A stretch of DNA of 6,592 nt, taken from positions 1 through 6,592 of IMG/VR virus record IMGVR_UViG_2547132273_000014; one strand, 5' to 3'. Both the position numbers and the translations under genes were made by a program. The DNA comes from a virus. Taxonomy: Duplodnaviria > Heunggongvirae > Uroviricota > Caudoviricetes. Of this stretch, positions 2,025 to 6,592 are shown in pieces. A model generated the notes under the pieces. The model ran no database searches. It saw nothing but the letters and a program-made list of their open reading frames with translations, and was not told the DNA's origin. Each line of letters opens with the position of its first letter. The stretch's first letter is position 1.

Positions 2025-2567
2025 TTACTTGTCTTTATCCGGCTGAAACTTATCAGGCACATTTCCGGTAGTTTCCATCAGATAATCGGACAGCATTCGC
2101 GGGATGTTTTCATCAAGTTTTGTGCATGCGTTACAGGCTCTGACAACTTCTTTTTTCAGGCCATCCAGCATGACGGGGGTCATCTGTGGGAAGCTCCTTT
2201 GCATAGTAAGCGGGAGGCTGTCCATGATTGATGAAATCTGACTCGCCAGTTTTGAAAGCGCGTACATGCAAAACTCTGTATCAATCACGTCACCGCGATC
2301 GCGCTCGTTTTTAAGTTCCTGCGCCTCCGCCTGTGCTGTCAGTAATCTGATCCTGACTCGTAAGAGTTCATCATCATCAATCTCGCCTTTGTCGTTTGTA
2401 AGCTGGCTAATTGCATTGTTAACCCTATTGTCTATCACGCTGGCAACATCATAAAACGCCTCACGGCCTTTACGTTCAACGGGAGTCACTCCCCACTTGT
2501 CGAATGCTGTAGCACTTACCCGGCAGCTTTGCGCCATGGTTTTTTTGTTCATCAGGTGCGATTTCAT
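2025..2567 (-). CDS. Phage lambda Nu1-like terminase small subunit (TerS)
   Basis: The translation aligns along its whole length with lambda gpNu1 as I recall it, for example RLLTAQAEAQELKNERDRGDVIDTEFCMYALSKLASQISSIMDSLPLTMQRSFPQ against lambda RLTRAQADAQELKNARDSAEVVETAFCTFVLSRIAGEIASILDGLPLSVQRRFPE, and C-terminal DENIPRMLSDYLMETTG against DELIPGLLSEYIEQSG. The N-terminal segment MNKKTMAQSCRVSATAFDKWGV is more divergent. It lies immediately downstream of a cos site, as in lambda. The ORF-track start at 2570 is TTG; ATG starts are at 2567 and 2552. Confidence 0.85.
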   Translation of the reverse strand: MKSHLMNKKTMAQSCRVSATAFDKWGVTPVERKGREAFYDVASVIDNRVNNAISQLTNDKGEIDDDELLRVRIRLLTAQAEAQELKNERDRGDVIDTEFCMYALSKLASQISSIMDSLPLTMQRSFPQMTPVMLDGLKKEVVRACNACTKLDENIPRMLSDYLMETTGNVPDKFQPDKDK

Positions 2568-2574
2568 CAATATC

Positions 2575-2745
2575 CCAACTTGGTCAAGGTTTCAGGTTGG
2601 TGTGTTGGTGTTATCTTTCCCTTTTTATTCATGGAGATAGAGCAAACAACAAAACCACCACCACCACCCTGAAAAAGCTCATAAATAGCGAAAAACCGCG
2701 AGGTCGCCGCCCCGTAGCCTACCGGATCGCCGGAAAGGACCCGCC
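2575..2745 (-). other. Lambda-type cos site: cosQ-like and cosN (12-nt cohesive end GGGCGGCGACCT, 2701-2712) with a divergent cosB-like region toward the TerS start
   Basis: The minus strand reads GGGTCCTTTCCGGCGATCCGGTAGGCTACG-GGGCGGCGACCT-CGCGGTTTTTCGCTATTTATGA, which is almost base-for-base the lambda right-end/cos/left-end sequence as I recall it (lambda: ...GGGTCCTTTCCGGTGATCCGACAGGTTACG GGGCGGCGACCT CGCGGGTTTTCGCTATTTATGA). The 130 bp between cosN and the TerS start do not resemble lambda cosB. Confidence 0.8.
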
Positions 2746-2768: not shown

Positions 2769-3152
2769 TCAACCAATCAACTTATAGCGACCATCCCGTG
2801 CATTGCGACGTACACGCTCAATCTTGAGGCATAGCGCCGCATCTGGCTTTTTTGGGACAGGTACGCGGCAATATTCAGAAGCTCGAGGAATATTGTTTAT
2901 CCAGTCGATCACTTCACTTAAATACCAGGCCTTACGCCCTTCCGTAACCTGTACGCGCTCGGGGAACTCTCCGCGAGCCTCAAGGTTTAGCAATGTGCGA
3001 CGGCTAAGGGTAGTAAGTTCCATCACCTGATTCATATCAACAAGGCGTTCACTTAAACGCATTTTGTCAGCAATAGCCTTTAATTCCTCTACTGCTGGAT
3101 CCGGATACATCATTTCGGCAATTGGCTTAAGGTCATTGTAATGATTCTGCAT
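2769..3152 (-). CDS. 127-aa DNA-binding protein with an AlpA/Vis/excisionase-type winged HTH (MerR superfamily), flanked by N- and C-terminal extensions
   Basis: Central motif MELTTLSRRTLLNLEARGEFPERVQVTEGRKAWYLSEVIDWI fits the AlpA/Vis-family pattern (L-x-x-LSR-x-T-L...G-x-FP-x-x-V...GR-x-A-W...E-V-x-x-WI). Strong RBS AGGGGG 5 nt upstream of the ATG at 3150-3152. The stop at 2769-2771 is about 25 bp before cosQ. Confidence 0.65.
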   Translation of the reverse strand: MQNHYNDLKPIAEMMYPDPAVEELKAIADKMRLSERLVDMNQVMELTTLSRRTLLNLEARGEFPERVQVTEGRKAWYLSEVIDWINNIPRASEYCRVPVPKKPDAALCLKIERVRRNARDGRYKLIG

Positions 3153-3163
3153 TGTATCCCCCT

Positions 3164-3505
3164 TTACACACGAGCCAGCGGCTGAACAGAAATACCTGAG
3201 CCAACAAACGCGGCAACCTTTGCCGACAGTTCTTTTACAGACTCAGGCCAGTTCAGAGCATCAACATTTAAAACACCTGTCTTATAAACCTGTGCCTGTG
3301 TTTTTTTCGCTGTGTCGATTTGTACAGCGGAAACATAAACCGCTTTGCCTGCGCTCGTTCCATCCCATACCACTAGCGCACCAGTTGCATCTTCCTGCAT
3401 CAGTGGCGTAAACGCAGGTATTACCCCTTTATTGGCTGAAAATATCCCCAGCGTAGTAACCAGTGCTTCAGTGCCAGACATGAGTTCAGTGTAATGAGTA
3501 GCCAT
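3164..3505 (-). CDS. Lambda gpD-like head decoration protein
   Basis: 113 aa, against lambda gpD at about 110 aa. Shared motifs with lambda D as I recall it: [27 protein letters not shown] against [42 protein letters not shown] against [25 protein letters not shown] against TAFAGTAISIV. RBS AAGGGGGAG overlaps the upstream stop. Confidence 0.82.
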   Translation of the reverse strand: [113 protein letters not shown]

Positions 3506-3514
3506 TGCTCCCCC

Positions 3515-4561
3515 TTAGCCAATGCGAACGGTAACAAAACGATTGATGCGGGCCGGTATTGGCTGTGGTGCTGAATGTGTCTGCACATATTCAATAGCCG
3601 GATCACCAGGCACAATATAGTTTTTCGGTGCAAGTTCGGCTTTAGTCAGCCCCATCCGAATTAGCTCCGGATCCTGAATACCGCCATAAGCGACAATCCC
3701 CTGAAGAGCCGTATTGCCAAGCACCATCAAATCAGGATCAAGGAAATATTTTTCAGTTCCGTCCTCGTCGGTATAACGCCCGCTGTAAACAACAATCGCA
3801 ACATCGCCCATATACCCTTTAAAACTCACCGAATCACCAAGGTCTTTAAGGGCCGTTTCCAGTTCGGAATTAGAACCTCGACGGGTATCCAGAGCCTCTT
3901 TTACAGCTCTGAATGAGCGGTATTTTTTCCATACATTGCCGCCCATAATAATGATATTAGTGACTCCCTCACTAAATTCTGCGTAGCTCTCAATATCATC
4001 ATTTGGATCAAAAGATCCTTTATCCTTACCTGACCACTCAGCACCGCCAGACTGAGTGATGATATTTTGTGGTTTAATATTCCAGTCCAGTTCATAACGT
4101 TCAATACCATCGCCCTCAATGATATTTTTCCCCGTTGTGATTGCCTGAACAGCAAGCCATTCAATACGTGCACGTATAGCTTTAGCCTGATTTACAATCG
4201 CCTGTTTAACTTTAATATTACGCGCCCCAAAAGCATTGTATTGTTCAGGTGATACACCAGCAGGGCGCACAGCTAACTTATTTGGATCAATGCTGCTTTT
4301 CGGTTTCATATAGCCAGGGCGAATTGTTTTTGATTCGTATCCCTCATCTCGTGAAACTTTACTGCCCACCATAGGAGAGCAAAACGCCGCGATCGGGATA
4401 TTTGGATCGTCGATCGTATCAAGAATAATGTCTCTCGATTCAAACATTACCGAGCGAGTGAAAAACAAACTGGTAAACAACGCATTTAATTTTTTTTGCA
4501 CATCTTCAGCATTAGCCACCTGCACAAGCTGTGTAGGCGAATATAAATCAACCATACTCAT
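3515..4561 (-). CDS. Lambda gpE-like major capsid protein
   Basis: From the internal start MSMVDLYSPTQL... (ATG at 4559-4561; alternative ATG at 4553-4555) the product is 348 aa, against lambda gpE at 341 aa, and aligns throughout with lambda E as I recall it: ITQSGGAEWSGKDKGSFDPNDDIESYA against ITQSGGTEWSKRDKSTYDPTDDIEAYA; LDTRRGSNSELETALKDLGDSVSFKGYMGDVAIVVYSG against LDTRRGSNSELETAVKDLGKAVSYKGMYGDVAIVVYSG; MVLGNT...YGGIQD against MVLGNT...YGCIQD. The ORF-track N-terminal 27 aa (MHLVACIR...) are probably not translated. Confidence 0.88.
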   Translation of the reverse strand: MSMVDLYSPTQLVQVANAEDVQKKLNALFTSLFFTRSVMFESRDIILDTIDDPNIPIAAFCSPMVGSKVSRDEGYESKTIRPGYMKPKSSIDPNKLAVRPAGVSPEQYNAFGARNIKVKQAIVNQAKAIRARIEWLAVQAITTGKNIIEGDGIERYELDWNIKPQNIITQSGGAEWSGKDKGSFDPNDDIESYAEFSEGVTNIIIMGGNVWKKYRSFRAVKEALDTRRGSNSELETALKDLGDSVSFKGYMGDVAIVVYSGRYTDEDGTEKYFLDPDLMVLGNTALQGIVAYGGIQDPELIRMGLTKAELAPKNYIVPGDPAIEYVQTHSAPQPIPARINRFVTVRIG

Positions 4562-4726
4562 CCTCTTTACATTCATTACAAATAATTGTGAATATATTCT
4601 ATTACCGATGTCTGCTATGCGAATACATGCAACCAAGTGCAATGTTGTATAAAATCTGCCGTGACAACTTCAGTGCTGATAATTCGTGTTAATGTATTTA
4701 CTTCCTTTGGTCGGGATTTATGTAGC

Positions 4727-4761
4727 ATGCCGGAAAATCTATTTTCTTCCGGCATTTTTTT
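4727..4761 (+). terminator. Plus-strand-oriented intrinsic-terminator-like hairpin in the SSB/capsid intergenic region
   Basis: 9-bp stem ATGCCGGAA (4727-4735) / TTCCGGCAT (4747-4755), 11-nt loop, then T6 (4756-4761). On the minus strand the run is A-rich before the stem, so it is not a terminator for the flanking minus-strand genes. Confidence 0.4.
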
Positions 4762-4772
4762 ATTTGCAGAAT

Positions 4773-5195
4773 TTAAAACGGTATATTATCGCCGTACGGA
4801 TCATCATTCCCCGACTGTTGTTTTGCCCTGTTCAGTGCGTCAGTAGCCTGGCCCTGTTGACCTTTTTTGCCGCCCGGTCGCGCCGTTCTGGCACTGATTA
4901 CACTGTCTGCGATAACCTGCCAGCCCTGCCGCGTTTCGCCGTTCTGGCCTGTCCACTGGCTTACCTGCATGTTACCCGCCACGCTCACCAGTTCGCCTTT
5001 GTGGTGTTTTGCCAGTGCGTCGGCCTGTCTGCCAAACGCCAGGACGGATAACCACATCGTCGCCGTTCCGTCATCTGCCTGGCTGCACGGAAGTGGGACC
5101 GCCATACTCGCCATCGTCATTTGTGTACCCTTGCTGGTGGTCTTTAACTGCGGGTCAGCCACCAGCCGCCCGTAAGCCGCTATCTGTGCTGTCAT
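4773..5195 (-). CDS. Single-stranded DNA-binding protein (SSB)-like, with acidic C-terminal ...DNIPF tail
   Basis: 140 aa. The OB-fold region resembles E. coli SSB as I recall it: IAAYGRLVADPQLKTT against VILVGNLGQDPEVRYM; MWLSVLAFGRQADALAKHHKGELVSVAGNMQVSQWTGQNGETRQ against [45 protein letters not shown]. A Gly/Gln-rich linker leads to a terminal DDPYGDNIPF, compared with SSB DDDIPF. The start ATG overlaps the stop of the upstream ORF (ATGA). Confidence 0.72.
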   Translation of the reverse strand: MTAQIAAYGRLVADPQLKTTSKGTQMTMASMAVPLPCSQADDGTATMWLSVLAFGRQADALAKHHKGELVSVAGNMQVSQWTGQNGETRQGWQVIADSVISARTARPGGKKGQQGQATDALNRAKQQSGNDDPYGDNIPF

Positions 5196-5482: not shown

Positions 5483-5712
5483 CTTCACCTGTTCACCTTT
5501 TGATATTTTATCTTTTAATTCATAATGTTAAGGGGTGAACAGTTTCACAAAAACTATTCACCAACTGTTCACCACTGTTCACCCTTGAAGCTCAATAAAC
5601 AATCAAAAAGGTGAACAGTGAATAGTTTGGTGAACAGTTCATAAATAACTGTTCACCCTATAACATACTGATACAAAAGATATTTATGACAGGGTGAACA
5701 GTGGTGAACAGT
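5483..5712. repeat. Iteron array: at least 9 perfect copies of TGTTCACC / GGTGAACA (10-bp unit ACTGTTCACC) in both orientations; P4 ori/crr-like primase-binding repeats
   Basis: Forward TGTTCACC at 5490, 5566, 5576 and 5650. Reverse GGTGAACA at 5534, 5610, 5629, 5693 and 5703. Degenerate copies at 5483-5489, 5555-5562 and 5618-5625. Interspersed A/T-rich tracts (5461-5480, 5498-5530). The array sits directly after the stop of the primase/helicase gene. Confidence 0.8.
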
Positions 5713-5724
5713 TATTCCATAAGT

Positions 5725-6592
5725 TTAATTTTTGCTATCGTCATTAGTGACCGATACACATGATGGCATCCAGTCTTCTGATTCCTCCGTCAGTGTCACG
5801 TTTGAACGCAAACCGTGCTTCGTTTTCCGTTTCATATACTCCCTGCCATATTCCGCCATTGCCCCCGGCATATCTTTACCGAAGCGCGTCAGTGTTACAG
5901 GTTTACCAAACCCATGTGCCCTCATATAAGCCAGATAGGCATGATAGAGATACCTGCGTGGGCTGAATGGCACAATTTCAGCATTACCCACTAACAGGCC
6001 ATCACACATTACCGACGCCATGAGATAGCCGCAGAAGTCCACCAGCGAATCCCCCTCTCGCTTTATCGCCAGTGCTTCTTCAGATTTCTGCTGCTCATAT
6101 AACAGGCGTCTGGCTTCGTCCTGGTCAGCAAACCGTGTAAGCAGATGGCGAATCACTACCGCCAACTCACCTTCTATTTTTTCCGCCAGCATTGGATCGC
6201 GTTCGTTCTCCGGTACAACTTCCGAAAAATTGAATATCACCCGACGACGTGAGATCCCCCCGCTGCGGTCACTGAATGACATGGCGTTATTGTTAACCGC
6301 CAGCACTACTGCCGGAATACGCGTTGAGTAGGGGGCTTTGTGTTTCGGGTCAATTGCCACCTTGTCACCGCCTGTAATGGCCTTAATTCCTGCCCCATCA
6401 CCAGCGTAGCGGGTCATATCCGGCATGATAATCAGCGAAAAGCCAACCACTAACGCGCGTTCCCTTGCATCTTCCAGCGCCTTCATGCTTGCCGATACTG
6501 TGTTGGCCTTACCCGCCAGCATGGTGCAAATCTCCGCCATCACGCTTTTACCACTTCCCCCTGGACCTGTTACCTCAATGAATAACTGCCAG
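5725..6592 (-). CDS. P4-alpha-like primase/helicase, C-terminal helicase portion (5'-partial; continues beyond window end)
   Basis: The open frame runs to the window edge. Its translation contains the Walker A motif in ...WQLFIEVTGPGGSGKSVMAEICTMLAG... and downstream helicase-like motifs (LIIMPDMTRYAGD). It is immediately followed by the TGTTCACC iterons that are the recognition repeats of P4 alpha. The ORF-track start at 6543 is an internal GTG. Confidence 0.8.
   Translation of the reverse strand, partial: WQLFIEVTGPGGSGKSVMAEICTMLAGKANTVSASMKALEDARERALVVGFSLIIMPDMTRYAGDGAGIKAITGGDKVAIDPKHKAPYSTRIPAVVLAVNNNAMSFSDRSGGISRRRVIFNFSEVVPENERDPMLAEKIEGELAVVIRHLLTRFADQDEARRLLYEQQKSEEALAIKREGDSLVDFCGYLMASVMCDGLLVGNAEIVPFSPRRYLYHAYLAYMRAHGFGKPVTLTRFGKDMPGAMAEYGREYMKRKTKHGLRSNVTLTEESEDWMPSCVSVTNDDSKN

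Follow-up and report, generated by a model that had tools for sequence, protein, structure and literature searches.

A winged helix-turn-helix protein of the AlpA family encoded last in the capsid cassette of Gram-negative PICIs: a candidate transcription factor of that cassette

The satellite analysed here encodes, directly behind its capsid and decoration genes, a 127-aa winged helix-turn-helix (wHTH) protein of the AlpA family, and this gene is inherited together with the two head genes and with an array of phased direct repeats that precedes them. Judging from comparative sequence data, the protein may be the dedicated transcription factor of the three-gene capsid cassette in Gram-negative PICIs, a proposal that we put forward tentatively, at somewhat less than an even chance, because the evidence is all correlative, promoter and gene are co-inherited, and the E. 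coli form of the array resembles a lambda CII site. The protein would then probably be an auto-activator of the cassette; its binding, the direction of its action (activator versus repressor) and the roles of its extensions, i.e. the mechanism, are what we infer, and the protein family itself is ordinary.

The papers on EcCICFT073 describe AlpA beside int, two cos sites, Rpp, and capsid and decoration genes without a phenotype (PMC6092414, PMC6739421). One small gene of the cassette described here offers a practical, testable handle on the role of the capsid proteins of classical E. coli PICIs. A 'late zone' was defined in the paper on helper-embedded PICIs, where the 127-aa gene was not singled out (PMC10111431). 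The literature searched contained no experiment on the family, and no mention of the protein's accession or of a comparable late-zone AlpA paralogue.

The host island is a Gram-negative PICI inserted at ileX

The window, i.e. the whole stretch of 6,592 nt that was analysed, starts in the E. coli chromosome with the end of rpoD, mug and then tRNA-Ile2 (ileX, 866-941), at which a satellite of ~10.5 kb is inserted (full island in locus L001) with its genes on the minus strand (Table 1); an Rfam search of the window returned the tRNA only. Since its gene order is collinear with that of the model PICI EcCICFT073, the element is a Gram-negative PICI, and all features used here to define one were found in the host island, namely a length of ~10-15 kb, int, an int-proximal regulator, a primase with an iteron origin, cos, an attachment site, and no tail or lysis genes. 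The complete island of strain FDAARGOS_1258 also carries, at its far end, the integrase and a 62-aa excisionase-type HTH gene, and the 127-aa gene lies ~7 kb from int, 3′ of the capsid genes. Directly 3′ of the primase gene, at least 10 copies of the iteron GGTGAACAGT, direct and inverted (5485-5725), constitute the replication origin expected of a PICI.

Table 1. Features of the island within the window
Feature	Position	Strand	Remarks
Primase C-terminus	5725-6543	-	First in transcription order, followed by the iteron origin
81-aa ORF		-	In transcription order between the iteron origin and the SSB gene
SSB gene	4773-5195	-	
Hairpin between SSB gene and repeat array	4727..4755	.	-15.7 kcal/mol, z=-5.4
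Four direct repeats, 10-bp period (TTATAC, TTGCAC, TTGCAT, TCGCAT)	4617..4652	-	Putative binding array of the 127-aa protein
-10 hexamer TAGAAT	4596..4601	-	T1, A5 and T6 invariant in 10/10 aligned clades
Major capsid protein gene, lambda E-like	3515..4555	-	Pfam Phage_cap_E; annotated start 4555; cassette gene 1
Head decoration protein gene, lambda D-like	3164..3505	-	Pfam HDPD; cassette gene 2
Ribosome-binding site AGGGGGA	3157..3163	-	Ends 4 nt 5′ of the ATG; from sequence
CDS of the 127-aa AlpA-family wHTH protein	2769..3152	-	ORF; profile, PDB and fold matches; model
cosQ-like block GGGTCCTTTCCGG	2730-2742	-	
cosN AGGTCGCCGCCC	2701-2712	-	Reverse complement of lambda GGGCGGCGACCT; identical to lambda
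Island-specific cosB-like region with (GGT)n, then Nu1-like TerS gene	2025..2700	-	TerS gene at 2025-2570

The 127-aa protein is an AlpA-type wHTH with two extensions

The ORF, which begins with ATG and whose span includes the stop codon, is a genuine, conserved gene; its ATG lies 11 nt beyond the stop of the decoration gene (3164-3166), behind the strong ribosome-binding site that the preliminary description of this DNA had already pointed out. Phage_AlpA (PF05930) matched residues 36-85 (E=1.4e-8, 34.9 bits versus a cut-off of 21), by which the AlpA-type wHTH of that description was borne out rather than an unrelated family, and because the AlpA domain spans these residues only, it leaves extensions of ~35 aa at the N terminus and 42 aa at the C terminus, near the roughly 40 aa given there. 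The closest PDB sequence was 8c3t (E=1.6e-10, residues 35-95), the 73-aa GIsul2 excisionase of the AlpA family, and the top PDB matches (8c3t and RdfS) are excisionases; among PHROGs the protein matched phrog_2790, 'excisionase and transcriptional regulator' (E=1.8e-48), and it has the winged helix-turn-helix fold of the AlpA-Xis superfamily. PADLOC and NCBIfam searches returned nothing meaningful for the protein, and no match was found to the Nu1 profile that marks a TerS of the Phage_Nu1 type.

An AF2 model built on 88 sequences reached a pLDDT of 78.8 (51 with 15 sequences), the extensions being modelled at moderate confidence (pLDDT 54-87, pTM 0.47). Helices are predicted in the N extension at residues 8-15 and 19-33, the wHTH at 40-86 and a basic C-terminal helix at 105-119. 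The two extensions gave dN/dS values of 0.50 (N) and 0.39 (C), against 0.07 for the wHTH core.

The gene is present in ~392 of 5426 complete E. coli genomes, and relatives of 127-aa length and 50-95% identity occur across the Enterobacteriaceae, same-length relatives being found in Escherichia, Enterobacter, Citrobacter, Klebsiella, Salmonella, Pluralibacter, Trabulsiella, Scandinavium, Buttiauxella, Cedecea and Serratia. Full-length relatives are confined to Enterobacterales satellites; tblastn against 50,697 phage genomes gave no match, a scan of the GTDB species representatives gave four loci only, and a profile search run exhaustively over 1.84 billion representative proteins gave the full-length architecture in a handful of clusters, all remaining matches covering the core alone (~residues 33-90). 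The protein is a new, satellite-specific architectural variant of the AlpA/Xis wHTH family. The commonest variant in the index is 114 aa long (~700 index blocks; L217 6001-6345, P0063), with a different N-terminal sequence, no first N-terminal helix and a conserved C extension, and the first helix therefore looks dispensable or exchangeable.

The gene is the constant third member of a capsid cassette

Ninety-five loci were collected from annotated E. coli genomes, GTDB representatives, contigs of distant relatives and 80 IMG/VR contigs, 92 with sequence upstream of the gene and 86 with sequence downstream of cosN. The E-like capsid gene and the D-like decoration gene lay directly upstream in all 92, with spacers of 9-11 nt within the cassette, and this synteny includes Kosakonia, Kluyvera, Superficieibacter, Cedecea, Scandinavium, Buttiauxella and Serratia at 48-72% identity, the Serratia and P0100 proteins standing at 48-51%. 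The primase of these loci is of the D5 or the DUF927 type. Beyond cos, the Cedecea island carries a TIR-domain protein on the opposite strand (L009 10681-11829; TIR_2 E=5.9e-21, plus DUF3298) and the Kluyvera island a gene resembling lambda tail assembly protein I (L007 10660-11259).

For comparison, a sister set of 80 EcCICFT073-type satellites was examined, in which capsid and decoration genes are followed by c1501 instead of the 127-aa gene; 38 of them carry a TerS-like gene and 21 carry Rpp. In EcCICFT073 itself (L003 22084-22497), c1501 encodes a 137-aa 'hypothetical' protein that matches phrog_1999 and, weakly (E=1e-8), the head-maturation protease phrog_53 in its C-terminal part, which is Nu3/scaffold-like; the c1501 protein may be a satellite scaffold homologue. 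An adaptor in this Nu3-like scaffold slot, binding DNA in capsid assembly or packaging, could also describe the 127-aa protein, which would then not, or not only, be a transcription factor: the extensions would contact the satellite capsid or decoration protein or the helper portal or terminase, the wHTH would hold satellite DNA, and satellite-built heads would be physically coupled to satellite genomes. We regard this as far-fetched. Comparison of the 127-aa family, extensions included, with c1501 by hhalign found no similarity.

Phased repeats and a -10 element are co-inherited with the cassette

When the DNA upstream of the capsid gene was aligned for ten clades, it proved mostly unalignable, and the invariant columns were the repeat array and positions T1, A5 and T6 of the -10 hexamer. 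The consensus of the repeat unit is TTRYAY, and an array scoring at least 17 of 18 matches was found in 90 of the 92 cassettes; it was found nowhere else in ~280 kb of fetched loci, helper prophage DNA included (0.3 expected by chance), and in none of the 80 sister cassettes with c1501 (471 kb). As promoter and gene are linked by descent, this contrast (90/92 versus 0/80) amounts to about one evolutionary event. In most clades 30-31 nt separate the last repeat unit from the -10, against 21 nt in the E. coli clade; the two spacings differ by one helical turn, a constraint of the kind expected for an activator site. Residue 52 is R where the unit is TTGCAC or TTATAC, G (Cedecea) with TTGTAC and Q (Serratia) with TTAGAC, a suggestive sign, resting on two changes, that the repeat unit co-varies with the recognition helix. 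The hairpin 5′ of the array keeps its position in every clade while its sequence changes, and is probably a bidirectional terminator that insulates the cassette. The data taken together suggest that PICI capsid genes travel as an insulated, separately regulated cassette with a promoter array and an AlpA-type regulator of their own. An exact-pattern scan of IMG/VR for three TTGCAY units gave more than 120 matches, of which 5 of the 120 fetched belonged to a 127-aa gene cassette; outside this context the bare pattern thus has no diagnostic value.

On this arrangement (hairpin, four phased repeats, -10, major capsid gene, decoration gene, 127-aa gene), the proposed transcription factor would act as follows. 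Several wHTH copies would bind the four TTRYAY units, phased at 10 bp, head-to-tail on one face of the helix, much as Xis, RdfS and BldC bind comparable repeats as multimers. The array stands just 5′ of a promoter with a conserved -10 and a weak -35, where bound protein would recruit or stabilise RNA polymerase; with the 127-aa gene last in its own operon, a positive loop would follow, in which slight read-through or basal transcription would build up to strong late expression of the capsid and decoration genes. The basic C-terminal helix and the variable N-terminal helical hairpin may serve oligomerisation, contact with RNA polymerase or regulatory input. It counts against the model that a regulator encoded last in the operon that it activates needs an outside trigger. 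Among the roles offered in the preliminary description, that of a late regulator is the one best supported on these sequence data, by the position as third cassette gene and by the conserved phased-repeat promoter.

The E. coli array reads TTGC-N6-TTGC-N6-TCGC, and since this resembles a lambda CII site, a helper-encoded or host factor could be the true ligand. That the array is read by such a factor, e.g. a CII-like activator of the helper, while the 127-aa protein serves capsid assembly, would suit the fit of the E. coli array and the presence of c1501, with its weak phrog_53 scaffold-part match, in the same slot of EcCICFT073. In lambda CII promoters, however, TTGC-N6-TTGC straddles the -35 at ~17 nt from the -10, as against 21 or 30-31 nt here; TTGC is lost in other genera (TTATAC, TTGTAC, TTAGAC), where unit positions 5-6 (A, C/T) are retained; the comparison of the family with c1501 was empty, and the core is an intact DNA-binding wHTH under strong constraint. 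We hold this reading to be highly improbable.

Satellites often encode factors directed at their helper, e.g. CapR of PLE (as cited in a passage of PMC10111431). That the 127-aa protein is one of them, as the preliminary description also suggested, binding helper DNA or protein and reprogramming or blocking helper late functions with its fast-evolving N-terminal hairpin as the interaction surface, appears quite unlikely. P4 delta is a satellite-encoded factor of this sort, and the N extension is indeed the fastest-evolving part of the protein and differs in length in the common 114-aa variant; yet neither the CFT073 lambdoid prophage nor the helper flanks of the embedded islands held a copy of the array, the sole co-inherited site is in the satellite itself, and the lambdoid late genes, being one antiterminated transcript, offer few regulatory targets.

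Modules beyond cosN are exchanged around the gene

With the cosQ-like block and a lambda-type cosN just beyond it (57 bp from gene to cosN), the 127-aa gene is the last before cos, as had been noted from the letters alone. The cosN/cosQ block is context and a recombination boundary outside the cassette; a terminator lies between the gene and cos in several clades, and in the window the hairpin 3′ of the stop codon was no more stable than shuffled sequence (z=0.04). What stands 3′ of cosN differs among the 86 loci: its own cosB with a Nu1-like TerS in 43, a lambda-type cosB without TerS in 19, neither module in 16 and both in 8, and Rpp in none (0/86). The ORF encoding TerS in the window matched Phage_Nu1 (E=9.8e-23) and phrog_57; over residues 1-174 this TerS matches phrog_57 as a homologue of Nu1 in full length, though with a diverged N-terminal DNA-binding region, its Pfam Nu1 match being restricted to residues 64-148, and in the cosB-like DNA beside it (2640-2668) a (GGT)n/GTT-rich tract takes the place of the lambda R sites. 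In strain KC-Dl-1, whose protein is 99% identical, similarity to the window stops exactly within cosN and a lambda-like cosB follows. Sibling islands likewise agree almost completely as far as the left half of cosN and are unrelated beyond it (2701-2712; L005 9470-9500), with either the island cosB and TerS or a lambda-like cosB (R, I1-like sequence) without TerS on the far side; because similarity ends inside cosN, the cosQ-side and cosB-side modules appear to recombine exactly there.

A second cos-binding or packaging-specificity factor had been suggested first for this gene. Such an accessory protein would bind near cos (on the cosQ side) or to the terminase and bias the helper terminase towards satellite DNA, as a functional cousin of Rpp or of the TerS DNA-binding domain. 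Of the roles suggested it fits worst, and we consider it unlikely. Proteins 99-100% identical adjoin three cosB/TerS arrangements (own cosB with TerS, lambda cosB only, neither); the 38 sister satellites with an island TerS do without the 127-aa gene; the cosQ/cosN block shows the same conservation in EcCICFT073, where the gene is absent; and no repeat common to the cos region and any other site was found.

Nor is the protein a member of Rpp, to which it has no sequence similarity (hhalign probability <0.1% with RppA; no PDB sequence match) and whose gene position is different, RppA and RppC being encoded downstream of cos and the 127-aa protein upstream of cosN, outside the Rpp slot. In Rpp an N-terminal wHTH is followed by a C-terminal coiled-coil dimer and specificity is matched to the island cosB (PMC6739421), whereas the wHTH of the 127-aa protein is central and the protein neither tracks the cosB type nor co-occurs with Rpp in any of the 86 loci.

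The protein is independent of the integrase type

The resemblance to excisionases raises the possibility of a recombination directionality role (RDF), serving the island or, through cross-talk, the helper prophage. Both the best PDB and the best PHROG matches (8c3t and RdfS; phrog_2790) are excisionases, and there is a precedent for a second AlpA gene standing in for the helper Xis in alpA_1 of EcCIMP1, a gene that the core PICI cycle does not require (PMC11773190). This role is nonetheless very unlikely, as the protein is found alongside three or more unrelated integrases and attachment sites, as every island already has an int-proximal AlpA or excisionase gene, and as co-transcription with the capsid genes and the co-inherited array would be left unexplained. 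A protein identical to that at ileX (WP_001179421) occurs with a different integrase at the attachment site clpS-cspD, and relatives are found at fis or within the helper-prophage capsid gene E (helper-embedded PICIs), which argues against an RDF specific to one integrase; in loci L006, L009, L014, L015 and L217-L219 the island is flanked by the split E fragments. A separate int-proximal regulator gene was seen in 74 loci, a CFT073-type AlpA in 65 and an excisionase type in 9, and an int-proximal gene of this kind matched TIGR01764. Because both the cosB/TerS and the integrase modules vary around the gene, a dedicated cos/TerS partner or an integrase-specific excisionase is unlikely.

Known RDFs, i.e. 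the GIsul2 excisionase (8c3t), RdfS, lambda Xis and Pukovnik Xis, are 55-75 aa long and each tied to one recombinase, in contrast to the 127-aa protein. Like the 127-aa gene, alpA_1 is an additional AlpA-family gene, situated at the far end of an E. coli PICI, but it is short, lies in the opposite orientation, resembles the helper Xis and is unlinked to capsid genes.

Comparison with other AlpA-type and satellite regulators

The AlpA of EcCICFT073 (62 aa, PF05930; compare CP4-57 AlpA) shares the wHTH with 33% identity over 55 aa and is likewise a satellite-encoded DNA-binding regulator. The 127-aa protein has twice that length and adds conserved N and C extensions; its gene lies in the late capsid cassette and not beside the integrase, and co-exists with a canonical AlpA in the 65 loci mentioned; and its full-length architecture is limited to a narrow Enterobacterales clade. 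With its 127 aa and its ~7 kb from int it departs from a canonical PICI AlpA, which is a single domain of ~60-75 aa encoded next to the integrase, and the label 'AlpA family' in satellites stands for no fewer than two different functions.

P4 delta, an activator encoded in the sid-delta-psu operon of satellite capsid remodelling and decoration, auto-activates that operon; it is an Ogr-type zinc finger that binds a dyad near -55 and also activates helper late promoters. By analogy it may be the closest functional parallel to the role proposed here for the 127-aa protein, although the two have no homology and in the DNA surveyed no helper targets of the 127-aa protein were found. BldC of Streptomyces (6ama/6amk) comes from an unrelated lineage with a different biology and lacks extensions. 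Only by coincidence does the AlpA of P. aeruginosa share the name; its Q-like fold of eight helices combines a C-terminal HTH with an N-terminal ring that enters the RNA exit channel (PMC9371919). A Q-like antiterminator by that analogy was rejected, as size and fold differ and neither a PDB sequence match nor a fold match was found.

Palindromes and other features near the island end

Three 17-bp palindromes (TACCCAAAATATGGGTA-like) at a 27-bp spacing occupy positions 1327-1397 (three matches versus 0.14 expected). The palindromic array of the preliminary description is thus real, but as a target of the 127-aa protein it is disfavoured, being confined to E. coli islands (L001, L004 and L005) and absent from the Kosakonia, Kluyvera, Superficieibacter and Cedecea loci that have the gene, as it is from CFT073. 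A strong terminator hairpin (1267-1292) follows the palindromes near the island end. On their other side, a 94-aa protein (phrog_1561; 1483-1767) is 70% identical to the product of the last gene of EcCICFT073, and its ORF is kept downstream of TerS or Rpp in both island types.
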